This document shows, one piece after another, positions 4,182 to 52,298 of a stretch of DNA of 64,000 nt (position 1 is its first letter; each line of letters begins with the position of its first letter). A program made the translations under genes and the position numbers. Source of the DNA: a virus; IMG/VR virus record IMGVR_UViG_3300017824_001452; one strand, given 5' to 3'. Below the pieces are notes generated by a model, which ran no database searches, was not told the origin of the DNA, and worked only from the letters and a program-made list of their open reading frames with translations.

Positions 4182-4713
4182 CGTAATGATAGATATGGAA
4201 ACTCTAAGTACAGATCCTGATTGTGTTATTTTAACAATCGGTGCTGTTCGTTTTGATCCTATGGGTACTGGAGTCGTAGAAAAACTAGAACTACGTCCTG
4301 AGATAGATTCGCAAACAGAAGAATTAAATAGACATATAAACCCTGATACATTAAGGTGGTGGGGAGAACAAAGTGAGGATGCAATTGATGAAGCAATGGG
4401 TGACAGAGATAGGATTCCGTTTAAAGATGCAATGGATCAGTTATACAAGTTCTGCTGGAATCGCAGAGCAGTTTGGTCTAATGGCGCTGGTTTTGATATT
4501 GTTGTTGCAGAGAATGCCTTTAGGCAATTAGAAATGCCGATACCCTGGCCTTTCTACACTATTAGAGACACAAGAACAATATATGATCTTTGCAACGTAT
4601 CTCTTAAAGATGGTCAAGCAGTAACGTCTCACAAGGCTGTAGAAGACGCAGAACACCAAGCAATCGTTGTGCAACGTGCATATCAGAAACTTAAACAAGC
4701 AGGACTTAAATGA
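4171..4713 (+). CDS. DEDDh 3'-5' exonuclease
   Basis: DMETL (ExoI), NGAGFD (ExoII), HKAVEDA (ExoIII). Confidence 0.85.
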   Translation: MANDVMIDMETLSTDPDCVILTIGAVRFDPMGTGVVEKLELRPEIDSQTEELNRHINPDTLRWWGEQSEDAIDEAMGDRDRIPFKDAMDQLYKFCWNRRAVWSNGAGFDIVVAENAFRQLEMPIPWPFYTIRDTRTIYDLCNVSLKDGQAVTSHKAVEDAEHQAIVVQRAYQKLKQAGLK

Positions 4714-5291
4714 GTATACAGTCAGATATTGATATTGACTTTGGAGATAGAGAAAAACTACTCAAGTTGATTAAACATGTACCTGCGGCAATGCGTGATG
4801 TAGAGCCAATAAAGAAACATCCTACTGGTGTATACATAACAGATGTACCCTATGACCCTGTAAATGATATGTGTTCTTTAGATTATAAAGAAGCAGATCA
4901 AAGAGGATACTTTAAGTTAGACCTGTTAAATGTTAACATCTATAAAGCAGTAAAAGATGAATTACATTTAATTAGTCTTATGACTGAGCCTAATTGGGAA
5001 CGATTAAAAGAAAGAAATTTTGTATCTGTGTTGTTGCATCTAAACAAACAATATGATGTTATGCAACAAATGCCAGAGCCTATTAATAGTATTCCAAGAT
5101 TAGCAATGTTCTTGGCTATTATTCGTCCAGCAAAAAGAAATCTTATTGGGAAGACATGGAAAGAGATAAGTAAAACTGTGTGGATTGACAACAATACAGG
5201 ATACACGTTTAAAAAGTCACATGCAGTGGCATATGCACAATTAGTTGTAGTGCATATGAATTTATTAGAGGAGCAAGATGAGTCAATATGA
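4710..5291 (+). CDS. dnaE: DNA polymerase III alpha-like, catalytic C-terminal half of a split minimal enzyme
   Basis: SDIDIDF, KHPTGV, FKLDLL, LAIIRP and YTFKKSHAVAYA match DnaE motifs PDFDVDF, KHAGGV, KFDFLG, ALFRPG and YGFNKSH..AY. Confidence 0.85.
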   Translation: MSIQSDIDIDFGDREKLLKLIKHVPAAMRDVEPIKKHPTGVYITDVPYDPVNDMCSLDYKEADQRGYFKLDLLNVNIYKAVKDELHLISLMTEPNWERLKERNFVSVLLHLNKQYDVMQQMPEPINSIPRLAMFLAIIRPAKRNLIGKTWKEISKTVWIDNNTGYTFKKSHAVAYAQLVVVHMNLLEEQDESI

Positions 5292-5550
5292 CGATAGAGT
5301 AGAAAGACAGAGACAAATGTTAGCGGCCGAAGAGTGGTCAAGAGGCGTAAAAGCAATACATGCACATTCATTTACTACTATGCATTACGAAACAAACCCA
5401 GATAGAACAGGTGATGATTTACGTGTATTAGATATAGAATATAATGACGGCACAGTAGAAAGAGAATACATAGTATCAGGTCGAAAAGAAATAATAGGAA
5501 CAAAACTTAAAGGTGAAATGTTATTGTTTGAGTATCAGAGGCACATCTAA
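5278..5550 (+). CDS. hypothetical protein
   Basis: 90-aa ORF with GAGGAG RBS, coupled to neighbours. Confidence 0.7.
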   Translation: MSQYDDRVERQRQMLAAEEWSRGVKAIHAHSFTTMHYETNPDRTGDDLRVLDIEYNDGTVEREYIVSGRKEIIGTKLKGEMLLFEYQRHI

Positions 5551-6104
5551 TGGAAGAATTGACACTAAACTTAATACCAGAAAACGATCCTAAATTAAAG
5601 GAACCTTGTGAGCCTTGGGACTTTAAACTCGACGGTGATCCAACTGAACTAATTAAAGCAATGACTAAAGTGATGTTTAATCCTAATCATCCTGGCATTG
5701 GTTTAGCCGCACCACAATGTGGCGTAATGAAAAATATATTAATCATGGGCACAGATGAAAAGTTAATGGCTTTTATTAATCCTCAAGTAGATGAACTTAG
5801 AGGAGAAAAAGAATTATTTTTAGAAGGGTGCTTAAGTTATCCTGATCTATGGTTGCATGTTCCAAGACAACCTGAATGCGTAGTCACCTATCAACAAATC
5901 GATGGTGAAGTCGTTAAAGAAAAACATCTTACTGGTATTCAAGCACGTGTATTTTTACATGAATATGATCACCTATTAGGTATCACGTTTGAAGAACGTG
6001 TACAAAGTAAACTTAGTTTAGAATTGGCTAGAAAACGCAGAGCAAAAAAGAAACGCCAAAGTGCTAAACTGGCTAGAAGACTTAAATTCCCTTCTGTTTC
6101 TTAG
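5550..6104 (+). CDS. def: peptide deformylase
   Basis: GIGLAAPQ, EGCLS, HEYDHLLG motifs. Confidence 0.95.
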   Translation: MEELTLNLIPENDPKLKEPCEPWDFKLDGDPTELIKAMTKVMFNPNHPGIGLAAPQCGVMKNILIMGTDEKLMAFINPQVDELRGEKELFLEGCLSYPDLWLHVPRQPECVVTYQQIDGEVVKEKHLTGIQARVFLHEYDHLLGITFEERVQSKLSLELARKRRAKKKRQSAKLARRLKFPSVS

Positions 6105-6493
6105 TAAGGTCGTTTTACTAAAGTAATCGATTTTCTTTTAACTCTTTTCTTTTGGAAGTCAGTCATTGACACAATCGGTCCATGCAACAATGTTAATGAC
6201 TTATTATTGAATGTTCTTAAGAAAGGTTTAAACATTGCCCACTCTTGCTTAAGAAATAAATGAATTGGTATTTGACGATTTGATTCCCACCACCAAACAT
6301 CTCCTAATTCTAAAAACTTTAGTCTTTTTTCAGGATCAACTATTGCACCATAGTCATAGATAGTTGTAACAAGATCATCACGGTTTTGAACAATGCCCAC
6401 AAAGTCTTGTCCGGCATATTGTAACACCGAAATAAACGGGTGAGTCTCTGTCAATTTGACAAAAAAGTCGATGGGTTTCTTTGAATCTGTCAT
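6101..6493 (-). CDS. hypothetical protein
   Basis: 130-aa ORF; TAAATA late-promoter motif 10 nt upstream on the minus strand (6504-6509). Confidence 0.75.
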   Translation of the reverse strand: MTDSKKPIDFFVKLTETHPFISVLQYAGQDFVGIVQNRDDLVTTIYDYGAIVDPEKRLKFLELGDVWWWESNRQIPIHLFLKQEWAMFKPFLRTFNNKSLTLLHGPIVSMTDFQKKRVKRKSITLVKRPY

Positions 6494-6556
6494 GTCTGTA
6501 AAGTATTTAGTACGATGAAAAAAATGGTCAAATTTCTTGGTAAACGCACCTAAAGA

Positions 6557-6562
6557 TAAATA
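6557..6562 (+). promoter_or_regulatory. T4-like late promoter (GATAAATA)
   Basis: TAAATA followed by AGGAG RBS and GTG start; divergent partner at 6504-6509. Confidence 0.7.
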
Positions 6563-6585
6563 TATTCTATAGGAGATTAAAATTT

Positions 6586-7386
6586 GTGTCTTACACTACA
6601 TCAGTATATACTTATACAGTCAGACAAATCGTTGTGGTTTTGTCAGGCACAAGCCCGAGGAAATATATGCCAGTTTATTCAAAACCATTAACCTTAAATA
6701 AAGGTGTCGATAATCAATTACAGTTTCAGTTTCTAAATCAGGAACAAAAGCCTGTTGACTTGTCATATATTGCAACTGAAAGTCAACAAATATCATTTAG
6801 AGCCATCAACTCAGATGGTACCGAAATCCTTTTCAGAAAGGCATTGACACCTGTACTTGATGTCAACGGTATATTTCAATTAAACACAACAGCGGCTGAA
6901 ATTGAAGATATTGAATCGCAAAAATGTTTTTATTCATTAGAATGGCCAAGTGGTAATCTTAATTTACCTGTCTTTGTAGATTCTAAAGCAGGTGCTAGAG
7001 GTGATTTAAATATTGTTGACTCAATACTACCTTCGTTTGTACCATCACAGAACGTAACAATACCAAACGATCAACCATTTCCTAATGCAAATGCTAATGC
7101 AAATTCAGAAGCAGTAACATTTTATTCAAGTATTATCAACACGCAAGATAATCCTGTATTAACTACTTCAATCGACTATGCAAATTATGTAGGCAATGTC
7201 ACTATTCAAGGATCAACTTTAGTTGATGCAAACTTTTATGATATTGAAACACACACATATGGTAATGCAGAAACAGGCGAGAGTGAATCTAGGACTATAG
7301 GTTATACAATCGACGGCTATCATCCATTCGTAAAGGTTAAATTTGAATCTAATGTGGGTAACATAGTTACTATTTTGGCTAGATAA
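6586..7386 (+). CDS. putative virion structural protein
   Basis: Late promoter, beta-rich; C-terminal domain resembles ORF 60980-61348. Confidence 0.6.
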   Translation: MSYTTSVYTYTVRQIVVVLSGTSPRKYMPVYSKPLTLNKGVDNQLQFQFLNQEQKPVDLSYIATESQQISFRAINSDGTEILFRKALTPVLDVNGIFQLNTTAAEIEDIESQKCFYSLEWPSGNLNLPVFVDSKAGARGDLNIVDSILPSFVPSQNVTIPNDQPFPNANANANSEAVTFYSSIINTQDNPVLTTSIDYANYVGNVTIQGSTLVDANFYDIETHTYGNAETGESESRTIGYTIDGYHPFVKVKFESNVGNIVTILAR

Positions 7387-7400
7387 GTTACCCTGTTTAC

Positions 7401-7429
7401 TTGTTTTAACTCTTATTTTCGTCTATAAT
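7401..7429 (+). promoter_or_regulatory. sigma70-type early promoter
   Basis: TTGTTT-N17-TATAAT; ATG 7 nt downstream. Confidence 0.6.
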
Positions 7430-7436
7430 ATCAGAT

Positions 7437-8411
7437 ATGTTTGATATACTTACGATTGTCCCAGGCAAAAAGAAGCAGACGCAGAGTGGATGGACTTCAT
7501 TCAATGCGCCTTGTTGCCATCACAATGGACATAACCCTGACAAAAGAATGCGAGGGGGAATTAAAGCAGACGGTGATGATTGGAACTATCATTGTTTTAA
7601 TTGTGGCTTTAAGTGCGGTTTCAAACTAGGCAGAGCAATTAGTAAACGCACACGTAACTTTTTATCATGGTGTAATATGCCAGACCAAGATATTAATAAA
7701 TGGTCGTTGCATTCTATTCAACACAAAGATTTGATAGATTCTATCCTACACAAAAAGAAACAACAGAAGTTACCTACGTTTAAAGAAAAGCCAATGCCAG
7801 AAGGTGAGTTGATTTATACTGCTAATAAAGATCATCAAGTGTACATTGACTACTTGAACAAAAGAGGATTACAACACAACGACTATCCTTTTATGGTTAA
7901 TCCCAATGCAGAGGGAAGACAATCGCAGGGTATAATTATCCCTTACACATATGAAAACAAAGTTGTAGGTAGTACAATAAGATTTATGGACGATAGAAAT
8001 CCTAAGTTCATAAATGATCAACAACAAGGATATGTATTTGGTACTGATTTACAAAAAGATAGTTGGGAAGTCGTATTAGTTTTTGAAGGTATTTTTGATG
8101 CTATCTCAATGAACGGTTTAGCACTGACACATGACACAATTAATGACAATCAAGTTGCTGTCATTAACAAATTGGGTAAACGTGTTATTGTTGTTCCTGA
8201 TCAGGATAAAACAGGTTTAAGTATATGTGAAAGAGCATTAGAACTAGGTTTTGATGTGTCTTTACCTAACTGGTCAGAAGATATTAAAGATGCAAATGAT
8301 GCTGTAATTAAATATGGTCGTCTGAATACTCTACTAAGTATATTAGACTCCGCAACAAACAGCAAAATTAAAGTAGAAGTTATGAGGAATAAAATTGCTA
8401 AAAGAATTTAA
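7437..8411 (+). CDS. DNA primase (gp61/DnaG-like)
   Basis: Zn-binding CCHH...HCFNC; TOPRIM EGIFDA, PDQD..G, KDAND. Confidence 0.85.
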   Translation: MFDILTIVPGKKKQTQSGWTSFNAPCCHHNGHNPDKRMRGGIKADGDDWNYHCFNCGFKCGFKLGRAISKRTRNFLSWCNMPDQDINKWSLHSIQHKDLIDSILHKKKQQKLPTFKEKPMPEGELIYTANKDHQVYIDYLNKRGLQHNDYPFMVNPNAEGRQSQGIIIPYTYENKVVGSTIRFMDDRNPKFINDQQQGYVFGTDLQKDSWEVVLVFEGIFDAISMNGLALTHDTINDNQVAVINKLGKRVIVVPDQDKTGLSICERALELGFDVSLPNWSEDIKDANDAVIKYGRLNTLLSILDSATNSKIKVEVMRNKIAKRI

Positions 8412-9810
8412 CGTAGAAGTACAAGAATTATTCTTGCGAATGATGATAACAAATGCAGAGTTGTTTGTTAGGGTCAATAATATCTTTAACGCAGAAAACT
8501 TTGATAGAAGATTAAGACCTGTCGCAGAGTTTATGAGAGAACATTCAGAGCAATATAAGGTATTGCCTGACTCTACGCAAATCAAAGCAACAACAGGAGA
8601 AACAATCGACACAGTTGATGAATTAGACGATGGTCATTACGAATGGTTTATGACTGAGTTTGAATCGTTTACTCGCAGACAAGAATTAGAAAGAGCAATC
8701 ATGTCATCAGCAGACTTGTTAGAGAAAGGTGATTATGATCCTGTTGAAAAGTTAATTAAAGATGCAGTACAAATATCATTACAAAGAGACTTAGGTATCG
8801 ATTACTTTGAAGATCCTAGGGCTCGTCTTATGCATCTTAAATCTAGCAACGGTCAAGTATCATGTGGTTGGCCCTGCTTAGATCAAAAACTCTATGGTGG
8901 TTTTAATAAAGGTGAACTGCAAATCTTTGCTGGGGGTTCGGGTTCAGGTAAATCATTGTTCATGCAAAATCTATCAGTCAATTGGGTAGAGCAAGGCTTA
9001 TCAGGCGTGTACATCACACTAGAATTGAGTGAAGAACTATCAGCAATGCGTATCGATTCTATGTTGACTGATACAAAGTCTAAGGAAGTATTTAAAGACT
9101 TAGACAATGTTGAAATGAAAGTTAAGATGAAACAAAAAGCCGCAGGTAACTTTAGAATTAAATATATGCCTGCTCAATCTACAGTAAATGATTTGAGAGC
9201 ATATGTCAAAGAATTACAAATACAAACAGGTATGAAACTAGACTTTATGTGCGTTGACTATTTGGATTTGTTAATGCCAGTAAGTGCTAAAGTAAGTCCT
9301 AGTGACTTGTTTGTTAAAGACAAATATGTATCAGAAGAATTACGTAACTTGGCGAAAGAGTTTGATTTAGTATTCGTAACTGCATCACAGTTAAACAGAA
9401 GTTCAGTTGATGAAATTGAATTTGATCACAGTCATATCTCAGGTGGTATATCAAAAATCAATACAGCAGACAATGTGTTTGGTATCTTTACATCACGTAG
9501 CATGAGAGAACGTGGTCAGTATCAAATTCAGTTAATGAAGACAAGATCAAGTTCAGGGGTAGGACAAAAAGTAGAATTAGCATTCGATATAGAAACATTG
9601 CGTATTACAGACCCAGGAACTAATGCACCAACGCATAACACATCACAACCATCTGCACAATCTATCATGGATAAGTTTAAAACAACATCACAAGTAGGGC
9701 AGACTAATGAAATAGTAGAAAATCAAGTAGAGCCCGAGCAAAAACGAGTAAATGGTGATGTACAAAGTACAAAATTAAAATCATTATTGAATACTTTGAA
9801 AGACAAATAA
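8395..9810 (+). CDS. replicative DNA helicase (gp41/DnaB family)
   Basis: GGSGSGKS, YITLEL, VDYLDL, TASQLNR, MKTR motifs. Confidence 0.92.
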   Translation: MLKEFNVEVQELFLRMMITNAELFVRVNNIFNAENFDRRLRPVAEFMREHSEQYKVLPDSTQIKATTGETIDTVDELDDGHYEWFMTEFESFTRRQELERAIMSSADLLEKGDYDPVEKLIKDAVQISLQRDLGIDYFEDPRARLMHLKSSNGQVSCGWPCLDQKLYGGFNKGELQIFAGGSGSGKSLFMQNLSVNWVEQGLSGVYITLELSEELSAMRIDSMLTDTKSKEVFKDLDNVEMKVKMKQKAAGNFRIKYMPAQSTVNDLRAYVKELQIQTGMKLDFMCVDYLDLLMPVSAKVSPSDLFVKDKYVSEELRNLAKEFDLVFVTASQLNRSSVDEIEFDHSHISGGISKINTADNVFGIFTSRSMRERGQYQIQLMKTRSSSGVGQKVELAFDIETLRITDPGTNAPTHNTSQPSAQSIMDKFKTTSQVGQTNEIVENQVEPEQKRVNGDVQSTKLKSLLNTLKDK

Positions 9811-9833
9811 TATCCAAAATGGTCACGATTGAC

Positions 9834-9839
9834 TAAATA
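9834..9839 (+). promoter_or_regulatory. late promoter
   Basis: TAAATA-GTAGT-A then AAGGA RBS. Confidence 0.6.
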
Positions 9840-9858
9840 GTAGTAAGGAATTATACTT

Positions 9859-10101
9859 ATGCAGAAAAAAACTAAAAGCCTTTTAGAAGAACTAGAAAAT
9901 TTTGGTAGCAACCGAGATATCCCACATATTGTAGAGTCTCGTGGCAACAATATTATTACTAGTGCGGTCAATTTAATTGAATTCATTCAACGTAATTACG
10001 ATGATGTTCAGGCTGAACAGTTAGAAAAGAAACTGCTAAGTGCTATCCGAGGTAGAGACAAAACTCGTTTTTCAAAGACGATTAAAAAGTATCAAGGGTA
10101 A
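9859..10101 (+). CDS. hypothetical late protein
   Basis: 80-aa ORF after late promoter and RBS. Confidence 0.75.
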   Translation: MQKKTKSLLEELENFGSNRDIPHIVESRGNNIITSAVNLIEFIQRNYDDVQAEQLEKKLLSAIRGRDKTRFSKTIKKYQG

Positions 10102-10107
10102 GTATCA

Positions 10108-11349
10108 ATGAAGTTTGATGAAGTCATTATCAAAGAAAATAAATTAGGCGACTGGATGTTTGGAGACAAACGATACCGCGGTCAGGGCGGCATGGGCGGT
10201 ACAGGAGGCCCTACAGTAAAAGCACCTAGTTTAGGACTTAAAGGTGGACTAACAAAACAAGATAAATTAGCATACAAATTATTTGTAAGAGACTTTGTTA
10301 GTGATGCATTGAGTACAATCGATTCAGGTCTTAGAGCAGGATTAATTAATCCGCCTTTAGGTCCAGGATCAGTCACTGGTGATGATCCAAATAATCCAGA
10401 CTCTCAAGGAAATATGGATCCGGACAACAAACAACGTTTAATGCCTGGCTTCCAAGAAAAAATGAGAAGAATGTTTAATCCTAAAATGAAAGGACATGAA
10501 AAGTACGGTGAGTACAAACCTGATACATCAGATTTCGGTAAAGAAACAGACGGCTTTAACAAGCCTAAAGTACCTACTAAACGTAAAATGAAATGGCAAC
10601 AACACAGTATCAAAGATTTAATTGATAAAGGTTTGACTACACAAGAAATTAGGAGAGCATACCCTGGTTGGAACGGTAATCTTAATGAGTGGGTTAAATT
10701 TGTCGAAATGAATATGATCTTAGAAAGTATCATAGACGAACAAGCACATGAAACAGATGTAGAAGCCGCAGGTGGTAGACTACTTAGTGTTTTTATGAAA
10801 GACTGGTTTGGTCAGTGGATGCAAAATGTTGATTATACCAAAAGTAAAGATGTATTATATCAAATCATTGATAACTTAGAACATGTGTATAACAATTCAA
10901 AGAATCCATCTAAGCCAAACATTGATAGAGATATTTTAACTCAGTTAGCCGACGGTGCTTGGGCGGCAACTTCTACAGTAGGTGTTACACCCGTAGGAGC
11001 AAAGAATGCACAAGGTGCAGAAGTAATACAAAAATCAGTACAAGCCCAAGGTGCAAAAGAACCTGAATTAAAATCAAAAGAAACACCAATGAAGCCCGTA
11101 CAGATACCTGCAGGCATAGCAATTAAAGATGCAGGCGGAACAGAATATTTTTATAACGGAGAACAGTGGACTGATTCTAGTGGTAATGCGTTGTCAGCAG
11201 AAGAACAGCAAAAGTATTCAAAAATGTATGCGATGGATCCTAAAACCTTCTATAAAACAGAACTTGCACCACAAAAGAAATCTGTTAAAGAATCTAAAAC
11301 TCAATCAGCAATTAGAGCAGAAAAAATACCATCACTGAAAACGAGGTAA
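10108..11349 (+). CDS. putative internal head protein
   Basis: N-terminal MKFDEVIIKE resembles T4 capsid-targeting/pro-sequences; further hydrophobic-x-E sites. Confidence 0.55.
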   Translation: MKFDEVIIKENKLGDWMFGDKRYRGQGGMGGTGGPTVKAPSLGLKGGLTKQDKLAYKLFVRDFVSDALSTIDSGLRAGLINPPLGPGSVTGDDPNNPDSQGNMDPDNKQRLMPGFQEKMRRMFNPKMKGHEKYGEYKPDTSDFGKETDGFNKPKVPTKRKMKWQQHSIKDLIDKGLTTQEIRRAYPGWNGNLNEWVKFVEMNMILESIIDEQAHETDVEAAGGRLLSVFMKDWFGQWMQNVDYTKSKDVLYQIIDNLEHVYNNSKNPSKPNIDRDILTQLADGAWAATSTVGVTPVGAKNAQGAEVIQKSVQAQGAKEPELKSKETPMKPVQIPAGIAIKDAGGTEYFYNGEQWTDSSGNALSAEEQQKYSKMYAMDPKTFYKTELAPQKKSVKESKTQSAIRAEKIPSLKTR

Positions 11350-11351
11350 CA

Positions 11352-12500
11352 ATGAACCTCAGTGAATCATTATCTAATACTTTACGTACATTAGAAAAAA
11401 TCAACTTAGTCGAAGCAAAGGGACACTTAGATCACCCAGAAGATTTAGTGTTCTTAGGCGATGTTGAGGGTGCTAGACAAGCAATTAGTGCAATAGAACA
11501 AACAATCGCACAACCGGGTACAATCACAATTAAGTGGGACGGCTATCCCGCTCTTATCTTTGGACGTAATAAAGAAGGTAGATTCTCTATTATGGACAAA
11601 CATATGTTCAATAAGAAAGACGGTACAGGAAGACAAGTGTTTTCTCCCCAAGAGTTTAGACAGTATGATAAGAATAGAGGTGTTGATCGAGGAGACTTGT
11701 ATCAGTTGATTGATGATATATGGCCTGGATTAGAAAAAGCAGATAGAGGATCATTAGGTTATTATTGGGGAGACTTATTGTTTGCAAAACCATTAGAAGA
11801 CCAAGACGGATACTACTCATTTAAAATGAATCCAAATGGTATTGCATACAAAGTAAAAGCAGATAGTGAAGTTGGTCACATGCTAAAAGGAAAAACAGCA
11901 GGAGTAGGTGTGCATACATTTATTCCAGTTAACGCACAAACTACAGATGAGTCATCATCACTAGACGGTACGATAGGTAACTTACATAACAATAGTGATG
12001 TAGCAATTGTACCTAGCAAGATGCCCATTACACCAAAGATTAAAATGCCCACGAAATTGAAATCACAAGCAGAAGCAGAAATTGCTCAACACGGTGATGC
12101 TGTTCGTATCTTAATGAATTCAGCGCCACAGGCACGTACTGCATTTAATTCTTTGTTTACTGTATTCATTAATAAAAAGATTGTTGCCAAAGACCTGTCA
12201 AATTTGTATAATGATTTTATTCAGTTTGTTGAGCAACGTCCAATGACTGACTCAATGCGTACTAAAATTACTAATCACTTCAATGCTCACAAGGACGGTG
12301 TTATGGGTGCATTTAAGATTTGGATTGCATTGTATAATCTAAAACAGAACATCGTAGATCAATTAGACAAAGCCGCAGAGGCTAGTCCTGTTAAAGGATA
12401 CTTAGATGATGGCAGTGAAACACACGAAGGTTTCGTTGCTAATGGACTCAAGTTTGTCAATAGAATGGGCTTTTCTGCTCAAAATCTCGCCGCAAAGTAA
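11352..12500 (+). CDS. ligase-like nucleotidyltransferase (DUF6267-like), putatively virion-packaged
   Basis: HLDHPED, KWDG (ligase motif I KxDG), GDLLF, HEGFV, LKFVNR; N-terminal pro-segment ending LVE. Confidence 0.6.
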   Translation: MNLSESLSNTLRTLEKINLVEAKGHLDHPEDLVFLGDVEGARQAISAIEQTIAQPGTITIKWDGYPALIFGRNKEGRFSIMDKHMFNKKDGTGRQVFSPQEFRQYDKNRGVDRGDLYQLIDDIWPGLEKADRGSLGYYWGDLLFAKPLEDQDGYYSFKMNPNGIAYKVKADSEVGHMLKGKTAGVGVHTFIPVNAQTTDESSSLDGTIGNLHNNSDVAIVPSKMPITPKIKMPTKLKSQAEAEIAQHGDAVRILMNSAPQARTAFNSLFTVFINKKIVAKDLSNLYNDFIQFVEQRPMTDSMRTKITNHFNAHKDGVMGAFKIWIALYNLKQNIVDQLDKAAEASPVKGYLDDGSETHEGFVANGLKFVNRMGFSAQNLAAK

Positions 12501-12530
12501 TAATATCACCGCATTTTTTCATAATCGGAA

Positions 12531-12536
12531 TAAATA
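12531..12536 (+). promoter_or_regulatory. late promoter with structured leader
   Basis: TAAATA-ATAGT-ATG followed by two small hairpins. Confidence 0.7.
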
Positions 12537-12611
12537 ATAGTATGAACCTCACGGTGAGGGACAACAAACTATACAGGCTCGGAACGAGTCTTTAAATTAA
12601 GGAAAAGAAAA

Positions 12612-12983
12612 ATGGCACAATTTACAAGAGCAAATGGTGACTTTTATCCAGTATTACGTTTAGACGCAACTGGATATTCAAACCCGGGTGTTAACGCAGT
12701 TTCAAGCGGTTCAACAGTTCAGCCTCAAGGGCCGAAGTTAGACTTCTTCAACATTGAGTTAGCAGACATCGCGGCAAACACAACTTTAGCAAACATCGCA
12801 ATGTTAACAATTCAGCAGAAAGCAATTGTTTACATTTACGAGTTCACTAACGATGCAACTGATGATCTTTCAATCGCAGTATATCCTACTGGCGCTTGGG
12901 ACGCAACTACTTTAGCATCTGCTATCGATACAGCAACTGGTGGAACATCAACAGTTGTAGCATCAGCAACATTCACTAACTAA
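12612..12983 (+). CDS. small virion structural protein
   Basis: Own late promoter, strong RBS (TAAGGA) and terminator; Ala/Thr-rich. Confidence 0.65.
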   Translation: MAQFTRANGDFYPVLRLDATGYSNPGVNAVSSGSTVQPQGPKLDFFNIELADIAANTTLANIAMLTIQQKAIVYIYEFTNDATDDLSIAVYPTGAWDATTLASAIDTATGGTSTVVASATFTN

Positions 12984-13001
12984 GTTTTTAGTTAAAGAAT
13001 T

Positions 13002-13032: not shown

Positions 13033-13038
13033 GGCTAC

Positions 13039-43032: not shown

Positions 43033-46000
43033 ATGGCACAAAGAAATATTGACTTCGGAGCATTCCCTGACGATCCAGATGCAGATGCAATACGATCGGC
43101 GTTTGAAAAAGTTCAGTTAAATTTTACAGAAGTATTTGCAGGACTAGGTGATCAAGCAGTTGTCTCAGTCAATAAAACTGCAGGACCTGGCATATATTTA
43201 GTTAATGGTTCTCCAGTAGGTAATGTTGTATTAGGTGCAAACATTGCTTGTGTACAGTTTTCTTCAACAACATTATCAGTAGGTCGTTCACCGGGTACAG
43301 GTCCAGGTTCTGCGACTATTACTGATTCTACTCAAACATTATATATTGATTTACCTAACACAATAGCAAACGTTACTGACGTTGTAGTATCAAATAGTGT
43401 ACAAGGCAACGCAATTATAGGTAATCTATCAGGTGATTTTGGATACGTATTAGCAAATGCATCATCTGGAAATGGTAATATAGATGCTAACAATATAACA
43501 TTGACAGGTGCTGTTGTAGCATCTAATGTTAGTGGTAATGGTGCTGGGTTATCAGCACTCACAGGTTCAAATGTAACTGGACAAGTAGGGAACGCATTAG
43601 TTGCAGGTACAGTGTACACTGCGGCGCAACCTAACATTACTTCAGTAGGAACTTTAACAACACTAGATGTAATGTCAACAGTAACTGCAACAGCATTTAC
43701 TGCAAATACAGGTTTATTTACTGGCGACGGCGGTGGTTTATCAAACATCGTTGGTGCAAATGTAACAGGAGAAGTTACTAACTCTGCGACAGCAAACGCA
43801 GTAGCAGGCGCAAACGTAAGTGGAGAAGTAGCATTCTCCGCAGTAGCAAATTCAGTAGCAGGATCAAATGTATCTGGTGCAGTCTCATTCGCAACAACTG
43901 CTAATGCAGTCGCCGGAGCAAATGTCTCTGGTGAAGTCGCATTTGCCGCTACAGCAAATAGTGTTGCTGGCGCAAACATATCAGGCGAAGTTGCATTCGC
44001 CGCTACTGCTAATTCAGTTGCAGGTTCTAATGTCAGCGGCGAAGTATCATTTGCACAAGTAGCAAATTCAGTCGCAGGTGCAAACGTAACAGGTGAAGTA
44101 AGTTTTGCAAGTACTGCAAATAGTGTTGCAGGAGCAAATGTCTCAGGCGCAGTAGCCAATGCTACACATGCATTATCAGCAGACTCAGCAAATGCAGTAG
44201 CAGGTGCTAACGTAACTGGTGAAGTAGGTTTTGCGGCTGTTTCAAATTCAGTAGCAGGATCAAATGTTTCAGGTGAAGTCGGATTTGCCGCAGTTGCTAA
44301 TAGTGTTGCTGGTGCAAATGTAACTGGTGAAGTATCAAATGCCGCAACTGCAAATGCAGTCGATGGCGCCAACGTATCGGGTACGGTTGCAAATGCTACA
44401 CATGCAACCACAGCAAATACGGTAGTTGATGCGGTACAATCAAATATTACAACTGTAGGTACATTAAGTTCATTAGATGTATCAGGCAATCTTAGTGCTG
44501 GCAATGTAACAACAACTGGTACATTTACTGGTGATGGTGGTGGTTTATCAAACATCTCTGTATCAACAGGATCTTATATCGAAAACGGTACAAGTGAAGC
44601 AAGACTTGACACTGACGGTCCTTTCAGAGTTACAGTTGGTGGAACTGCAAACGTATTACAAGTTAACAATACAGGTACAGAAGTAGCAGTAACAGGCTCA
44701 ATGTCTGTATCAGGTGGATTTGATAACAACATAGACTTTAACAGCACATCTAATTTAGGGCCAGTAGGCAACGTAACAATTACAGGTGGTGCTACTGGAG
44801 CATTCTTAATGACAGATGGCTCTGGTACTTTAACATGGGACACAGCAACTTTAGTTCCAGCACAAGGCGCAGATACACAAATTATATTCAATGACGGTGG
44901 AAGTACATATGCCGGTAACACTGGACTAACGTTCAATAAAACATCAGGTAATGTGGCAATACCAGGCAACTTAGCAGTAACAAGTGCTGTATCTGGTACA
45001 ACACTTGAAGGAAGTTTATTAACAAATGCACAACCAAACATTACAAGCCTTGGTACATTAACAAGTTTAATTTTAAGTGGTAATCTCAATACTAACAGTG
45101 ATCTTATCACTAACGCAGGTAACATTACAATTGCTAGTGGTACAGGATCATTTATAGGAAATGGTGCAGGATTAACAAATATTACAGGAGCAAACGTAAG
45201 TGAAGTTCCTTTAGCAACATTAGCAACTACTGCTACAACAGCAAACGCAGTTGCAGGTGCTAATGTATCAGGAGAAGTTCCCTTTGCACAAGTAGCCAAT
45301 TCAGTTGCTGGTGCAAATGTTTCAGGCGAAGTTGCATTCGCCGCTACTGCTAACTCAGTAGCAGGTGCTAACGTTTCTGGAGCAGTTGCAAGTGCTACTA
45401 CAGCAACAACTGCCACAACAGCAGATACCGTAACAACAGCATCACAACCCAACATCACTAGTGTTGGAACGTTATCGTCATTATCTGTTACAGGTAATGT
45501 GTCTGCAGGAAATGTATCGGGCACTGGTGGTGTCTTTACATACGTATCAGGAGATGGCGCTAACTTAACAGCAATAGACGGACAACAAGTTACAGGTGAA
45601 GTAGACTTTGCACAAGTAGCAAATAGTGTCGCAGGTGCTAATGTATCAGGGACTGTCGCATTAGCAACAACCGCAGGAACTGTGTCTACATCAGCACAGC
45701 CAAACATCACATCTGTTGGAACTTTAACAGTATTAGGTGTAAATGGTATTGTAACAGCACAATCGTTTACAGCAAATACAGGGTTATTTAACGGTGATGG
45801 TGGTGGACTATCTAATGTGGCGGCAGCCAATATTAGTGGTATAGTAGCAAACGCAACATATGCAACATCAGCAGGTAGTGCGGCATTAGCATTAGATATT
45901 ACAGGAGCAACACAACCTAATATTACTAGTGTAGGCACACTAACAAGTTTAACAGTGTCTGGTAACATAACTAACCAGACTCACATTATTAAAGATGTAA

Positions 46001-46302
46001 CAACCGCAACAGCAGGTGGCACCGATCAATCAGGAGCAACAGCATTAAGTGGAGCAGATATATTCTCAGTTACTACACCTAGCAATAACAACGGTGTTAG
46101 ATTGATGGCTGCTACTCCTGGCTTATGTATATACATCAAAAATTTAGATCCAACAGATACATTAAAAGTATATCCAGCATCTAATGATGCGATTGACGGT
46201 AACGGAACTAATGGAGCAATGTCAATAGGTCCTTTAGGACAAATTCAATTTGTAGCCCACAGTTCATCACAATGGTATACTGTCGGCGCAACATATGCAT
46301 AA
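43033..46302 (+). CDS. tail/baseplate fibre protein with 18-aa tandem repeats
   Basis: N-terminal D.IRSAFEKV..NFTE anchor; VAGANVSGEVAFAATANS repeats; late promoter 43005-43010. Confidence 0.8.
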   Translation: MAQRNIDFGAFPDDPDADAIRSAFEKVQLNFTEVFAGLGDQAVVSVNKTAGPGIYLVNGSPVGNVVLGANIACVQFSSTTLSVGRSPGTGPGSATITDSTQTLYIDLPNTIANVTDVVVSNSVQGNAIIGNLSGDFGYVLANASSGNGNIDANNITLTGAVVASNVSGNGAGLSALTGSNVTGQVGNALVAGTVYTAAQPNITSVGTLTTLDVMSTVTATAFTANTGLFTGDGGGLSNIVGANVTGEVTNSATANAVAGANVSGEVAFSAVANSVAGSNVSGAVSFATTANAVAGANVSGEVAFAATANSVAGANISGEVAFAATANSVAGSNVSGEVSFAQVANSVAGANVTGEVSFASTANSVAGANVSGAVANATHALSADSANAVAGANVTGEVGFAAVSNSVAGSNVSGEVGFAAVANSVAGANVTGEVSNAATANAVDGANVSGTVANATHATTANTVVDAVQSNITTVGTLSSLDVSGNLSAGNVTTTGTFTGDGGGLSNISVSTGSYIENGTSEARLDTDGPFRVTVGGTANVLQVNNTGTEVAVTGSMSVSGGFDNNIDFNSTSNLGPVGNVTITGGATGAFLMTDGSGTLTWDTATLVPAQGADTQIIFNDGGSTYAGNTGLTFNKTSGNVAIPGNLAVTSAVSGTTLEGSLLTNAQPNITSLGTLTSLILSGNLNTNSDLITNAGNITIASGTGSFIGNGAGLTNITGANVSEVPLATLATTATTANAVAGANVSGEVPFAQVANSVAGANVSGEVAFAATANSVAGANVSGAVASATTATTATTADTVTTASQPNITSVGTLSSLSVTGNVSAGNVSGTGGVFTYVSGDGANLTAIDGQQVTGEVDFAQVANSVAGANVSGTVALATTAGTVSTSAQPNITSVGTLTVLGVNGIVTAQSFTANTGLFNGDGGGLSNVAAANISGIVANATYATSAGSAALALDITGATQPNITSVGTLTSLTVSGNITNQTHIIKDVTTATAGGTDQSGATALSGADIFSVTTPSNNNGVRLMAATPGLCIYIKNLDPTDTLKVYPASNDAIDGNGTNGAMSIGPLGQIQFVAHSSSQWYTVGATYA
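43750..44410 (+). repeat. ~12 tandem 54-nt (18-aa) coding repeats
   Basis: VAG(A/S)NV(S/T)GEVxFAxxANS; further copies near 45240-45390 and 45590-45660. Confidence 0.9.
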
Positions 46303-46334
46303 TGTTTTGCATCTTTAGAAAGGATAAAAAACAA

Positions 46335-46796
46335 ATGAAATTATCAAAGAATTTTACACTCACAGAGTTTGAAAAAAGTCAAACTGCTATACGTCAGGGT
46401 TTAGATAACACTATGCCTGAAGAACATTTAGAAAATGCAAAAGCATTATGTGAAAACGTATTACAAAAAGTAAGAGATCATTTTGGACCTGTAATTATTA
46501 ATAGTGGATATCGTGGATCTGCTCTTAATAAAGCAGTAGGTGGAAGTGCAAAATCACAACACTGTAAGGGTCAAGCCGCAGACATAGAAATACATGGAGT
46601 ATCTAATTACGATCTTGCTAAATGGATTGAAAAAAATACAGATTTTGATCAAGTAATTTTAGAATTCTACACTCCGGGTATACCTGATTCAGGTTGGGTG
46701 CATGTTACTTACAATACTGCAGGTAATAGAGGCAAGTCTTTAACTGCATCTAAAGTCGATGGCAGAACACATTATTCTTTAGGTCTCACTAAATGA
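46335..46796 (+). CDS. peptidase M15A (putative endolysin)
   Basis: LSKNFTLTEF, SGYR...LN.AVGG...SQH..G.AAD, WVH; AAGGA RBS supports ATG 46335. Confidence 0.85.
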   Translation: MKLSKNFTLTEFEKSQTAIRQGLDNTMPEEHLENAKALCENVLQKVRDHFGPVIINSGYRGSALNKAVGGSAKSQHCKGQAADIEIHGVSNYDLAKWIEKNTDFDQVILEFYTPGIPDSGWVHVTYNTAGNRGKSLTASKVDGRTHYSLGLTK

Positions 46797-49417
46797 GTAA
46801 TCATCCTGAGTGGGTAACACCAGCCGGAAGTATAGGCGCATTCCCGTCTCAAGTTCCTATGACATTTACGTTTGTAGCAACCCCAGAACTTCCTGCAACA
46901 GCAATTACTTACGCAGTATTGAGCGGAAGCATACCTTCAGGATTATCATTAGATAGTGAAACTGGAATATTATCAGGTACACCTGCAACTGTGGGTGCAG
47001 ACACTACTTACAATTTTTCTATTAGAGCAACAGACGATTATCTAGGTGATACACAACGTATTATGGATAGAACATTTAGTATGATTATTAGTGGTGTTGC
47101 AACACCTGAATTTACTACTCCTGCAGGTACTATTTTAAATTCAAACGACAGTGTATGGAGAGAATTGCAGATAGAATATACAAATCCAGTAACGACTAAT
47201 CCAATATCTATTAGGAAAATTCAAGGAACATTGCCTCCTGGATTAGAAATTAATGAATCAGGATTAATTAGAGGTTATCCTGAACCACCCGTCATTAGTG
47301 TTAATTATAGTACTGTTAATACATCAGTATTAGCCATATCATCAAACGTTTTGACAGTATTGAGTACAACAGGATTTATTAAAGAAAGGCCTATTATATT
47401 TAATGGTGCAGTTTATGGGGACATTGTAGCAAATAGAGTATATTATGTCAAAGATATTTTAAGTGCAACTACATTTACAATATCATCAGCACGTGGCGGA
47501 GCAGAAGAAATTTTATCAGATGGCGTAGGAACATTTGGAGCATTATTACCACAAATACAAACAGGTGAGCCTACTGTACAAACATATTCATTTACATTAG
47601 AATTAGTATCACCATTAGGAAATGCATTAGAATCATATAATATTATTATTGCAAATCAAAATGCGCCGATAAGTGCAGGAGGTCCTGGCCTTCCACCAAA
47701 CAGCAGAATACCTAGTGTCTTAAATACAAGACCACAAACATTTGATGTTGCAACCAATGATCCAACTAACTATGGTTATTATGTATTTCCTAATGATGAT
47801 CCAAATACTACGTATTCACCAAGTGAAGAAGCAAATATAGGAACCTTTCAAAGTGGAGAATATTTTGCATGGAGAATGTTAGGAAAAGATTTTGATGGCA
47901 ATGCTTTAGAATATCGATACACTGATCTACCTTTAGGATTAGTAGGAGATTCAGTGACTGGATGGATAACAGGAACGCCTGTAATTGCTGATAATAGTAT
48001 TTCAAATTATACATTTAGTGTTAATGTAAGAAAAGCAAGTTTTACATCTATACAAAGTTCCACATTTAAATTTAAAATGACTGTTACAAATGATATATTA
48101 GGAGTAATCAATTGGACAACACCTAATGATCTTGGTAAAATGAATAACAGTGAAACATCTATTTTAGCGGTTAATGCAACAAGTGATGTAGAACTTGAAT
48201 ATAGAGTTACGAGCGGCACATTACCTCCCAACTTACAATTGTTAAGCAATGGTGAAATATCAGGTAAAGTAGCATATCAACCCAATGATACATTTACAGA
48301 ACCAAACGCAGAAACACCGTTTACATTTACAATCGAAGCATATTCGCCTTTTTATCCTGTGATTAATTCTACAAGAACGTTTACATTAACTATCGTACAA
48401 GAATTTATTCAACCCACAGATACTTTATATATTAAATGTGTACCAAATGTTGCAGATAGGAATATTATTAATTCATTACTTAACAATACAATGATTTTCC
48501 CTGAACAAGATTTGTATAGGCCAGAAGACGTAAACTTTGGTAAAGCAACTAATATTACATATGAACATGCGTATGGTATATATGCAAGTGATTTTGAAGA
48601 ATATGTAGCCGCTATTGACAAGAATCATTATTGGAGATATATTACATTAGGTGAATTAAAAACAGCAGTTGCAAAAAATTCTGCTGGAGAAATAGTTTAT
48701 GAAGTAGTTTATTCTCAAATACAAGATGATCTAATAAACCCAAAAGGCAAAAGCATCAGTGAAGAAATTTTATGGCCTAGAAGTATACCACTTAGTAAAG
48801 GACCATGGTACACAAGTGTAACAGATATCTACACAAGTTATATAGATACAACCCCCGACGGACAACAAATACAAACAGAAGAAACGTTTGAAGAACAATT
48901 AATCGTTTCAGAAACTGAATTACCTTTGTTAACAGAAACAAGTCAACCAGCATATTATACAAGTTTAACTCCTGAATTTGCAAGAGCATTGTATCCTAAT
49001 TCATTGCCAAACATGAGAGACAGAGCAGGACAGAACTTAGGACAAGAATTTGACTTTAGACTTCTTCCTGAATGGATGACTAGTCAACAAGCAAACGGTT
49101 CGACTTTAGGATATACTCCCGCTTGGGTTCTTGCTTATTGTAAGCCGGGTACCGCTGATACAATTAAAAACAATATTGAAACTTTATGGGTAGATCCTTT
49201 AGGTAAACCATACACATTGAACACAATTAACTTCCAGTTAGACAGAATTACAGTTAATAAATCTACTACGTTTGACTATGATAATAACACTAGTCCGCCC
49301 GCATGGACAGGATTACCTAGTGCATCTCCAGAACCTAATCCTATTGATTCTGAAGACTTTCATGTTTTATTTCCTAGAAGAACTGTTTTACCAGACGAAG
49401 GAAATGTATCTGGATAA
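46793..49417 (+). CDS. baseplate wedge-like protein with Ig-like repeats
   Basis: Repeated G.LP.GL.L...G.ISGTP (putative Ig) units. Confidence 0.65.
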   Translation: MSNHPEWVTPAGSIGAFPSQVPMTFTFVATPELPATAITYAVLSGSIPSGLSLDSETGILSGTPATVGADTTYNFSIRATDDYLGDTQRIMDRTFSMIISGVATPEFTTPAGTILNSNDSVWRELQIEYTNPVTTNPISIRKIQGTLPPGLEINESGLIRGYPEPPVISVNYSTVNTSVLAISSNVLTVLSTTGFIKERPIIFNGAVYGDIVANRVYYVKDILSATTFTISSARGGAEEILSDGVGTFGALLPQIQTGEPTVQTYSFTLELVSPLGNALESYNIIIANQNAPISAGGPGLPPNSRIPSVLNTRPQTFDVATNDPTNYGYYVFPNDDPNTTYSPSEEANIGTFQSGEYFAWRMLGKDFDGNALEYRYTDLPLGLVGDSVTGWITGTPVIADNSISNYTFSVNVRKASFTSIQSSTFKFKMTVTNDILGVINWTTPNDLGKMNNSETSILAVNATSDVELEYRVTSGTLPPNLQLLSNGEISGKVAYQPNDTFTEPNAETPFTFTIEAYSPFYPVINSTRTFTLTIVQEFIQPTDTLYIKCVPNVADRNIINSLLNNTMIFPEQDLYRPEDVNFGKATNITYEHAYGIYASDFEEYVAAIDKNHYWRYITLGELKTAVAKNSAGEIVYEVVYSQIQDDLINPKGKSISEEILWPRSIPLSKGPWYTSVTDIYTSYIDTTPDGQQIQTEETFEEQLIVSETELPLLTETSQPAYYTSLTPEFARALYPNSLPNMRDRAGQNLGQEFDFRLLPEWMTSQQANGSTLGYTPAWVLAYCKPGTADTIKNNIETLWVDPLGKPYTLNTINFQLDRITVNKSTTFDYDNNTSPPAWTGLPSASPEPNPIDSEDFHVLFPRRTVLPDEGNVSG

Positions 49418-49457
49418 TTTGTGTTGATAAATAGTATATTGAGAGATTATATAAATT

Positions 49458-50930
49458 ATGACTAGTACAATTAATACAAACGGAATAGACGGAAACTATC
49501 CTGTCCCGGGACAGAATAACAATTCTCAGGGTTTCAGAGATAATTTTACGGCTATCAAAAATAATTTAAATACAGCCGAAACAGAAATTTCAGACTTACA
49601 AAGTAATGCTGTACTTAAAGCGCCTTTAACTGGTATTCCGTTAGACAATAACATGGCCAATACTTTGATTAGTAATGCCGCTGTTAGAACGTTTCGTAAT
49701 ACTACATATAATTTAGGTAATAACGTATCAGGAACAGTCGTAGTCGATTGTACATTAGGTGATGTACAATTTGCAACTATTACAGGAAACACTACGTTTC
49801 AATTTGCAGGTTGGGCACCTACTTCAACAAAACACACAATCACGTTAGACTTAACTGTTGCAAACACTGATGCATTTTTAATGTTCCCTGCTGAAGTTGT
49901 TGGTAGTGGTGACATTTTAGAAAACAACATAACGGTTAGTGGCAACTTAGCAATTGCTAAAGCACCTTATGATGTAACTAATCTCGTATATGATTTTTCT
50001 ACTATTGATTGTGGTAATACAATTTTAGTAGAACCAGTCAACAGAAGTTATCAAATCTCACAAATCGAACAAAGAGAAGCAATTATTCCTACAGGATATG
50101 TAGGTGACAGAAACGGTGATGTTGCATTCTCTACAGTTATCGAACCACAAACAATAACTGATACAGGTAACGTTTTTACTGCCGGAACATTTGTAGTTGG
50201 TAGAGAATATATTATTGTTTCTACAGGAGACACTGATTTTACTTTAATTGGAGCCGCAGATAGCAACCCGGGAACTGCATTCGTAGCAACTGGTGTTGGT
50301 ACAGGAACTGGAACAGCCAGTGACAATACTTTAATTACAGACAACACTACTGGTTTTTATGTAGGCATGCCAGTAGAGTTTACAGGACAAAATGGCAACA
50401 CAGTATTTGGAGGAGTCTCTGCGGGTACAGATTATTATGTAACATTTGTCGAAGATGATACTAGTTTTGCAGTAAGTACTACGTTGGGCGGTAGCAATAT
50501 AGCACTGACTACTGGCAACAGTACAATGCAAGTATCACCTATTAAACATGTTTATTATGCTACAGGAACATTTGACAGCACAGTGAATTCTGTTAATTTG
50601 CATGAAACTACTGCATCAACAGACTTAATAGAATTGGCAGCCACTGTTCCAAATGTTGCATCATATGGATTAAATCAACCTATCGTATTTTCAGGCAGTG
50701 AGATAGAATTAGACGATGCAGGTCTTTTAGCAAATACTACATATTATATTGCTTCTATCGATACAGGTGGTGCAAACACAGCAATATCAATAAGCCGATC
50801 ACGTACAAATGGCGTAGCAGACGGCAACGTATCATTATCTGATCATACATTTACTTCAAACATAGCATTAGGTAATGTGTATACACAGGGCCACGACATT
50901 TGGAAAAGAATTAGGCTAGACTCGTTTTAA
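49458..50930 (+). CDS. baseplate/tail fibre-associated structural protein
   Basis: YPVPGQNNNSQGFRDNF..IK N-terminus, C-terminal IWKRI; late promoter 49428-49433. Confidence 0.65.
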   Translation: MTSTINTNGIDGNYPVPGQNNNSQGFRDNFTAIKNNLNTAETEISDLQSNAVLKAPLTGIPLDNNMANTLISNAAVRTFRNTTYNLGNNVSGTVVVDCTLGDVQFATITGNTTFQFAGWAPTSTKHTITLDLTVANTDAFLMFPAEVVGSGDILENNITVSGNLAIAKAPYDVTNLVYDFSTIDCGNTILVEPVNRSYQISQIEQREAIIPTGYVGDRNGDVAFSTVIEPQTITDTGNVFTAGTFVVGREYIIVSTGDTDFTLIGAADSNPGTAFVATGVGTGTGTASDNTLITDNTTGFYVGMPVEFTGQNGNTVFGGVSAGTDYYVTFVEDDTSFAVSTTLGGSNIALTTGNSTMQVSPIKHVYYATGTFDSTVNSVNLHETTASTDLIELAATVPNVASYGLNQPIVFSGSEIELDDAGLLANTTYYIASIDTGGANTAISISRSRTNGVADGNVSLSDHTFTSNIALGNVYTQGHDIWKRIRLDSF

Positions 50931-50940
50931 AGGATAGGCT

Positions 50941-51180
50941 ATGTCAGGCATGCATCATCCATTTATCAACGATCTTTCTGATAAAAGTATAGAAGAATTA
51001 CAAGAAGCAATTTCTGATCTTACTACTAAAATTACATTTGCACATCGCATACAAAATCAACCTATGATTAATCAATTAGATATGATTCTTAATAGTTACA
51101 AATCTGAACAAAAGAAAAAATTAGATAAATTGTTTGCTGAAAAAGAGATAGGTGATAACATTAAAGTAGATAGAAAATGA
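50941..51180 (+). CDS. hypothetical coiled-coil protein
   Basis: 79-aa ORF with RBS. Confidence 0.7.
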   Translation: MSGMHHPFINDLSDKSIEELQEAISDLTTKITFAHRIQNQPMINQLDMILNSYKSEQKKKLDKLFAEKEIGDNIKVDRK

Positions 51181-51746
51181 GTACCAGAATAGAAAAAGAT
51201 TTAGGTTTTTCTACAGCAATACATTTTGCTGATACATTCATGTTAAATGAATATTTAATGACTTTATCTATGTTAGTAGAAACAGAGGACATTGCAGAAC
51301 AAAATATTGCTTTAGAACGTTTACTGCATTTTGTTATAAACGTATTAAACAATTGTATTTTTATCAACGAAAACAACACCAAAGAAATTAAAAAATATAA
51401 AGAAGCAGGTATTAGAGTTTGTGAACTGCCCGATGATCCTTTTGATCAAATTATTTCTATGGCACTTTTGCAAAAGTTTAATTCTATTACTGAAGGACGA
51501 ATTAAAGTTACAGACTGCTCACTAAGTTCTCATTTAAGTGACGGTGTTCGTTTCTGTACAGTTTCAGAAATAGTAGAGAGTAACATAGATCAAGGAAACC
51601 ATAAATGGTGGAATTGCAGTACACTCTGCATTGAACATTCTAAACCAGATGATAACAATGATAATATTGTTAAACTTTTTTCTAATGATGAATGGGAAAA
51701 ACTATCACTCAACTTTAAAAAGGGTAAAAAATCTTCCAAAAGTTAG
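51177..51746 (+). CDS. hypothetical protein
   Basis: 189-aa ORF, ATGA overlap. Confidence 0.75.
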   Translation: MSTRIEKDLGFSTAIHFADTFMLNEYLMTLSMLVETEDIAEQNIALERLLHFVINVLNNCIFINENNTKEIKKYKEAGIRVCELPDDPFDQIISMALLQKFNSITEGRIKVTDCSLSSHLSDGVRFCTVSEIVESNIDQGNHKWWNCSTLCIEHSKPDDNNDNIVKLFSNDEWEKLSLNFKKGKKSSKS

Positions 51747-51756
51747 ACCTTTTTGC

Positions 51757-51784
51757 TTGTAAATCAACAATAATAGTGTATAAT
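51757..51784 (+). promoter_or_regulatory. sigma70-type early promoter
   Basis: TTGTAA-N16-TATAAT; ATG 7 nt downstream. Confidence 0.6.
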
Positions 51785-51791
51785 ATATCAT

Positions 51792-52298
51792 ATGATTAAC
51801 GATTATTACGGACGCCCTATATATACTGAACGAGATTTAGTAGATATCTACATGACAAATCCAAATCAGAAATTAAAAGGTGTTCTTACTAATAACAAAA
51901 TAGAAATTGATCCAAGCCTAGAAATAGAAAATGTTCCTGAGTTAATAGAACACACATTAGCACAAGTTTCTGTTGCAGATTTTGATGAAGAAATGCGAAG
52001 CAAATGGCATATGCCTACAAAATACAGAGAACTAGACATTGCTAAATGGTTACTAGAACAATGTAAACACGAAGAAGAAATACAACGTGTAGGAAAAGAA
52101 TTGTTATTGTATCAAAAACGCGGACAATTTCAACTATTGCAGTATATGAAATATCTTGTTGATTTAATGAGAGAACATAATATCGTATGGGGAGTAGGTA
52201 GAGGGTCTAGTGTATCAAGTTTTGTTTTATTTTTGATAGGAATTCACCGTATAAATAGTATATACTACGGTTTAGACGTTGAAGAATTTTTAAAATAG
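51792..52298 (+). CDS. dnaE: DNA polymerase III alpha-like, N-terminal palm half of a split minimal enzyme
   Basis: QRVGKEL....GVGRGSSVSSFVLFLIGIHRIN..YGLDVEEFLK aligns to DnaE [31 protein letters not shown]. Confidence 0.85.
   Translation: MINDYYGRPIYTERDLVDIYMTNPNQKLKGVLTNNKIEIDPSLEIENVPELIEHTLAQVSVADFDEEMRSKWHMPTKYRELDIAKWLLEQCKHEEEIQRVGKELLLYQKRGQFQLLQYMKYLVDLMREHNIVWGVGRGSSVSSFVLFLIGIHRINSIYYGLDVEEFLK

Follow-up and report, generated by a model that had tools for sequence, protein, structure and literature searches.

Two distant genes of an uncultured marine virus probably encode the subunits of a split minimal DNA polymerase III alpha

The 64,000-nucleotide stretch of viral DNA analyzed here (IMG/VR record IMGVR_UViG_3300017824_001452; the window) contains two short open reading frames (ORFs), 4710-5291 and 51792-52298, that resemble adjoining parts of the alpha subunit of bacterial DNA polymerase III (Pol III; DnaE), and the question raised by this locus is whether genes so far apart can supply the parts of a single enzyme. 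An initial annotation had proposed a naturally split family C polymerase, with halves ~47 kb apart that form a heterodimer with one active site. Both ORFs are as it described; they share the (+) strand and are separated by 46.5 kb that is filled mostly by structural genes, the ORF for the C-terminal half (C-half, 193 residues) being upstream of that for the N-terminal half (N-half, 168 residues). We consider it very probable that they encode the N- and C-terminal subunits of the split minimal Pol III alpha module that marks the group 2.2 T4-like jumbo phages (Rak2/PA5oct/Atu_ph07 type), and that together they make a polymerase with a composite active site. A split enzyme of this kind was already described from sequence in 2021, and the window provides one more example of it and no new principle.

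The N-half gene (51792-52298) is an intact ORF that ends in ...GVGRGSSVSSFVLFLIGIHRINSIYYGLDVEEFLK-stop, its last residues being EFLK; the C-terminal part of the protein reads ...GVGRGSS...YYGLDVEEFLK-stop. The N-half matches the Pfam family DNA_pol3_alpha (PF07733, profile positions 15-94 of 260) with an E-value of 3.7e-10, which passes the family threshold, and the PHROG family phrog_11127 at 1.8e-40. A profile built from eight family members aligns it to residues 380-455 of Taq Pol III alpha and 322-393 of Escherichia coli DnaE, with the end of the N-half at the FERFLN motif. Residues 88-168 thereby correspond to residues 322-393 of the E. coli palm and include the GVGRGSS loop (G134-S140), which is invariant across 47 N-half sequences, and residues 1-75 form an N-terminal extension specific to the split family. 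A Foldseek search with the AlphaFold model of the N-half (predicted local distance difference test (pLDDT) score 88.1) returned only Pol III alpha or PolC among its top 15 matches, with probabilities up to 1.00. Foldseek E-values were marginal for both halves (about 0.01-0.02), yet all top matches were Pol III alpha or PolC.

The C-half gene (4710-5291) is an intact ORF that begins MSIQSDIDIDF. Its product has no Pfam match, and the profile comparison with DNA_pol3_alpha that the initial annotation had suggested for both ORFs was positive for the N-half only. C-half profiles built from 8 and from 38 sequences found no meaningful match among PDB chains, the sole match at E ≤ 10 being an unrelated protein (E 0.85). 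Its homology is assigned from its PHROG match (phrog_11778, 6.4e-55), its motifs and its structure. The AlphaFold model (pLDDT 88.9) aligns with residues 459-841 of Taq Pol III alpha (Z score of 9.2, 3.4 Å root mean square deviation (rmsd), 188 of 193 residues aligned) and residues 397-781 of E. coli DnaE (Z score of 8.3, 3.9 Å rmsd, 182 of 193 residues aligned). All of the top 10 chains in the structural alignment are Pol III alpha, Mycobacterium tuberculosis DnaE1 included, and the best unrelated fold has a Z score of 3.5; VIA-align separated the C-half from unrelated folds more clearly than Foldseek. In its entirety the C-half can be superposed on the palm and fingers of Taq structure 3e0d, which has DNA bound.

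The residues conserved in the C-half are those of a C-family active site. D6, D8, D10, K69, D71, R139-P140 and F167-K168...H171 (FKKSH) are invariant across 38 sequences; D6, D8 and D10 correspond to E. coli D401, D403 and D405 (the DxDxD motif), and K69 and D71 to K553 and D555. All C-family enzymes keep D401, D403 and D555 without exception, and the fourth residue, D405, is conserved within DnaE but replaced by Asn in PolC (PMC3919608); the presence of D10, the D405 equivalent, therefore marks the split protein as DnaE-like and not PolC-like. H171 maps to E. coli H760 when the offset given by the structural alignment (192 to 781) is applied. H760 belongs to the KSH motif, is invariant in Pol III alpha, and has been proposed from structural modeling to act as the steric gate against ribonucleotides (PMC8485763).

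Where the polypeptide is interrupted can be placed closely. The last residue of the N-half is equivalent to E. coli N393, and residue 1 of the C-half falls at about E. coli 396 by the DxDxD numbering (397 in the structural alignment), so that the two proteins meet within about 2-3 residues; the statement that the two halves abut just ahead of the catalytic aspartates holds within that margin. The N-half stop lies 0-2 residues past the profile end in all 12 genomes compared, which share this break point, and no N-half-like sequence precedes the C-half in any of them. The break point is also that of PA5oct, Atu_ph07, Phosso and SCTP-2. Cyanobacterial dnaE-n and dnaE-c likewise provide a C-family polymerase from two distant genes, but there each half bears a split-intein segment and splicing yields one full-length chain, whereas the halves in the window lack a Hint segment and must remain two chains. 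In cyanobacteria the break also falls elsewhere, much further downstream, in the fingers.

Is the split, then, a property of the enzyme or of the data? In principle the two ORFs could stem from a formerly intact dnaE now in decay, from an assembly artefact, or from a gene whose two products are joined after transcription or translation by an intein or by trans-splicing; beyond the split itself nothing speaks for any of these, and we find them barely credible. Joining is opposed by the ends of the two ORFs, as a Pfam search detected no Hint or intein domain in either, and there would be no room for one, because only five residues precede the first Asp of the C-half and the stop codon of the N-half follows directly after EFLK. 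Decay is opposed by the ratio of nonsynonymous to synonymous substitution rates (dN/dS). In comparisons with close relatives this ratio is 0.057-0.10 in the C-half and 0.066-0.09 in the N-half, and dS, at 0.5-0.8, is not saturated; both halves are under strong purifying selection. An artefact is opposed by the size of the family, which, when clustered at 90% identity, comprises at least 7984 clusters of C-half proteins and 5657 of N-half proteins that share these ends, many of them from marine samples (490 representatives at 50% identity in an exhaustive profile search). The split also recurs in cultured phages, at the same residue in many independent genomes. The intein, pseudogene and assembly-artefact readings were rejected on these grounds (no Hint domain, dN/dS of 0.06-0.10 and the recurrent same-residue split), in agreement with the initial annotation on the lack of an intein and the integrity of both genes.

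The two halves are inherited together. Searches of cultured phages by tblastn placed the C-half in 96 records and the N-half in 87, among them PA5oct-like and Rak2/CBB/GAP32-like phages, Atu_ph07, Phosso, SCTP-2 and XacN1, and in three of three cultured phages without a tblastn match to the N-half a profile recovered it. One of these three, Alishewanella phage vB_AspM_Slicko01 (OQ508956.1), has a genome of 141 kb, below the usual jumbo size, and carries the split pair with its halves ~11 kb apart. Both halves were found in about 92 of the 96 cultured records when a naturally fused relative, P0288 (described below), served as the query (188 places), and none of the 188 places spanned both halves. 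In IMG/VR, both occur in all three complete genomes and in 8 of 10 long contigs; in the two contigs with one half, the expected site of the partner, ~45 kb downstream as in close relatives, would lie beyond the contig end. The distance between the halves ranges from 11 to 128 kb across relatives, in one contig they are on opposite strands, and in none of the 168 loci examined did flanks of up to 3 kb contain both. Inter-genome distances measured on the two halves are correlated (Mantel r 0.84, a value reached by 0 of 5000 permutations). No other Pol III alpha gene (PF07733) is present in the complete relatives. The lineage of the window is an uncultured marine one, 37-48% identical to cultured members, and megablast found no near-identical DNA in cultured phages.

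If the chains are not joined covalently, do they bind? Structure prediction for the pair, run on alignments built for this analysis, gave an ipSAE of 0.89 in three runs, compared with 0.00 for the best of three controls; among 80 solved complexes, 58 reach the mark set for this score, as do 2 of 110 mismatched pairs. The model contains 160 contacts, with a partner pLDDT of 90 and at least 93% agreement in contacts between runs. The contacts of lowest error pair residues 131-134 of the N-half (IVWG, the strand ahead of GRGS) with residues 9-11 of the C-half (the DxD strand), so that the palm sheet is predicted to be completed between the two chains, and residues 65-74 in the extension of the N-half pack against residues 43-45 of the C-half in the model. 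The complex model supports binding of the halves, and a heterodimer whose active site is assembled from two chains, as first proposed, is favored by the model together with co-occurrence and selection.

Single-chain relatives with the same module boundaries exist (about 313-787 in E. coli numbering), but unlike the split pair each is contiguous. Word-based searches found no longer, fused relative of the C-half, and the exhaustive profile search gave one, P0288 (375 residues), a single-chain minimal Pol III alpha encoded at positions 1066-2193 of a 2415-bp ENA metagenome scaffold. In P0288 the N-half match covers residues 14-180 (hhalign probability 99.3%); a 10-residue linker (DNKEGIYNIA) follows, and then residues 190-371, which match the C-half. 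The protein keeps all the catalytic residues and carries the family-specific N-terminal extension. P0288 forms a singleton cluster and has the genomic context of a C-half, with a convergent gene downstream like that of the 130-residue protein phrog_11637. P0288 could have arisen by secondary fusion, or it could represent the ancestral state. A search for its relatives among contigs from IMG/VR and JGI metagenomes turned up no further minimal fused form, and the two metagenome matches were ordinary Pol III alpha proteins of 933 and roughly 1100 residues. The second single-chain relative, an unsplit Pol III alpha core of 559 residues without a PHP domain, is encoded in IMGVR_UViG_3300027804_000045 (~54.9-56.6 kb) alongside a split pair. 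It contains the Pfam palm (16-260) and a finger domain, aligns to E. coli DnaE 313-787 and keeps the thumb; a single full-length relative of it is encoded by the 484-kb uncultured phage LR756508.1.

What the two chains contain is considerably less than a DnaE protein. The pair shares with bacterial DnaE a Pol-beta-like palm, the GS loop, equivalents of D401, D403, D405 and D555, the steric-gate His and helices of the fingers, and the structural match covers E. coli 322-781. Bacterial DnaE is one chain of ~1160 residues, whereas the pair is two chains totaling 361 residues, and it has no PHP domain, HhH/clamp-binding region, OB domain or tau-binding tail, with most of the thumb deleted as well. 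The PHP, clamp-binding and OB domains are absent from both ORFs, in which PF07733 is the only Pfam match, and the matched region is palm and fingers only. The C-half packs ~385 residues of the DnaE palm, thumb and fingers into 193, with about half deleted and the thumb mostly gone. The enzyme is a 361-residue minimal core (palm and part of the fingers), and the description of it as a split DnaE stands for homology and fails for a full-length protein.

The same content defines a known system. The split minimal Pol III alpha was reported as a hallmark of group 2.2 jumbo phages by Iyer, Anantharaman, Krishnan, Burroughs and Aravind (Iyer et al. 2021, Viruses 13:63, PMC7824862), who found the nucleoside triphosphate (NTP)-binding subdomain and the Mg2+- and template-binding subdomain as two pieces beside a family B polymerase and proposed the split core as a model of the ancestral enzyme; the initial annotation's caution that jumbo-phage surveys might already have noted it was well placed. 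The window shares with that system two distant genes, an NTP-binding N-terminal piece, an Mg2+- and template-binding C-terminal piece and no other Pol III domains. There is no essential difference, and the window's clade adds an exonuclease coupled to the C-half and a promoter abutting the ATG of the N-half. Placement in group 2.2 is consistent with the gp41-like helicase, Toprim primase, clamp loader and gp31-like co-chaperonin that the window shows in conserved synteny, the family B polymerase being seen in relatives only.

We infer the following mechanism. The N-half would supply one palm beta-strand (IVWG, 131-134), the GRGS triphosphate-binding loop and the helices that follow it, and from the C-half would come the following palm strand, which bears DxDxD, a further strand bearing the third catalytic Asp (D71), and shortened fingers that hold the steric gate H171. 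The chains would join non-covalently by completing one beta-sheet, with no intein, and the active site would then be composite. Retention of the steric gate, together with the DnaE-type Asp triad, is suggestive of a small, 361-residue enzyme that polymerizes deoxynucleoside triphosphates. Such an enzyme may act beside the family B replicase of the phage, where its tasks could include repair, the filling of gaps or the synthesis of one strand.

The expression signals of the two genes differ, and here the initial annotation, which had given each gene signals of its own, was right for one of the two. A sigma70-like promoter (TTGTAA, 16-nt spacer, TATAAT; 51757-51784, +) ends 7 nt before the ATG of the N-half, and the N-half start has no Shine-Dalgarno sequence. 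The promoter element is kept in nine relatives, and more distant ones have a perfect TTGACA. It is this conservation that gives the promoter weight and not a generic scan of the window, which found 11 promoters where 11.3 were expected from shuffles, that is, no enrichment. The arrangement suggests an early, leaderless transcript for the N-half, with the sequence element as a putative promoter. The C-half has only a Shine-Dalgarno sequence (AGGA, 5 nt upstream of its start); its ATG overlaps (ATGA) the stop codon of the gene for a DEDDh 3'-5' exonuclease (Rv2179c-like, 180 residues; 4171-4713, +; PF16473, 3.4e-34), to which, judging from this overlap, it is translationally coupled. Among relatives, the exonuclease gene is next to the C-half only where C-half identity is 57% or more, and in other relatives the C-half likewise runs straight on from an upstream ORF. 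The exonuclease, co-translated with the C-half in the window's clade, may proofread; we regard it as a candidate partner for proofreading, and one confined to this clade.

Such different expression, with an early-type promoter for the N-half and an operon for the C-half, would fit two proteins that act separately and form no joint active site, for instance as decoys or modulators of the host Pol III holoenzyme. We regard this as very unlikely, since neither half alone holds a complete nucleotidyltransferase core, the catalytic residues are invariant in both, the halves are co-inherited according to the distance correlation, and a natural fused form exists in P0288. The composite polymerase could be taken a step further, in that the pair with its co-translated exonuclease may be the smallest known proofreading C-family polymerase, whose assembly is timed by the early leaderless sigma70 transcript of the N-half relative to the replication-operon transcript of the C-half and exonuclease. 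The split would then be a regulatory switch and not only a frozen accident, and P0288 would be ancestral or a reversion; we put this forward as a speculation that we ourselves think doubtful.

Several observations weigh against the composite polymerase. Without the clamp-binding region, the OB domain and the greater part of the thumb, processive replication is unlikely. The canonical Arg of FERFLN is replaced throughout the split family by an invariant Glu (E165, codon 52285-52287), the motif reading EEFLK; the Glu is found also in the fused P0288, and the unsplit 559-residue form keeps the Arg. The complex score may partly reflect the memory of the prediction model, because structures of contiguous Pol III alpha have been solved. 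We found no published biochemical test of any member of the split family in the literature. The exonuclease was considered as a universal third subunit and rejected, being a neighbor only in the window's clade and undetected at E ≤ 0.001, in a search without a positive control, in five cultured phages that have both halves. The family B polymerase beside which the enzyme would work is present as an intact gene of ~900 residues in five of five relatives checked and is not encoded inside the 64-kb window, so that the evidence for it comes from relatives only.

Some of these points would also fit a heterodimer that forms but is no templated DNA polymerase, namely a nucleotidyltransferase of Pol-beta fold with another chemistry, such as template-independent tailing or the synthesis of a nucleotide signal. 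The loss of most of the thumb and of the clamp-binding region and OB domain, the charge reversal from Arg to Glu and our failure to find activity data in the literature are all compatible with it. We think it improbable, as the DnaE-specific fingers helix with the ribonucleotide-excluding steric-gate His is invariant, as is the DnaE-type DxDxD, the C-half superposes wholly on the palm and fingers of DNA-bound Taq 3e0d, and both genes lie within blocks of replication genes. If the split module is a real polymerase, its 361-residue two-chain core would be the minimal form of the bacterial replicase fold, in a class that is very abundant in marine and freshwater metagenomes. The window offers a clean, intact example with a coupled exonuclease, and P0288 could serve as a single-chain construct for biochemistry. 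The additions made here to the published description are small: the fused P0288, the unsplit 559-residue core in a relative, and the probable leaderless transcript of the N-half.

The replication blocks around the two genes are conserved. On the C-half side the order is C-half, the convergent gene for phrog_11637 (6101-6493, -; a conserved protein of 130 residues), a 266-residue protein, a Toprim primase (7437-8411, +) and a DnaB/gp41-like helicase (8395-9810, +), and the synteny of C-half, primase and helicase is found also in PA5oct, Atu_ph07 and SCTP-2. The phrog_11637 gene converges on the C-half in nearly all of 88 C-half loci, including those of PA5oct, Atu_ph07, Phosso and SCTP-2, and often overlaps the 3' end of the C-half. 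In the window a peptide deformylase gene (5550-6104, +; PF01327, 4.9e-33) stands between the two, as it does at this spot in some relatives only. On the other side, a 189-residue protein, the N-half, a 229-residue protein, a GroES/gp31-like co-chaperonin (53000-53377, +) and a clamp-loader AAA+ subunit (53924-54847, +) follow one another in an order shared with PA5oct, Phosso, Atu_ph07 and SCTP-2. Further downstream is a chaperone cluster in which a DnaJ-like protein (J domain and DnaJ_C) is followed by a ClpB/Hsp104-type double AAA+ protein (57614-60758, +), in addition to the gp31/GroES-like gene.

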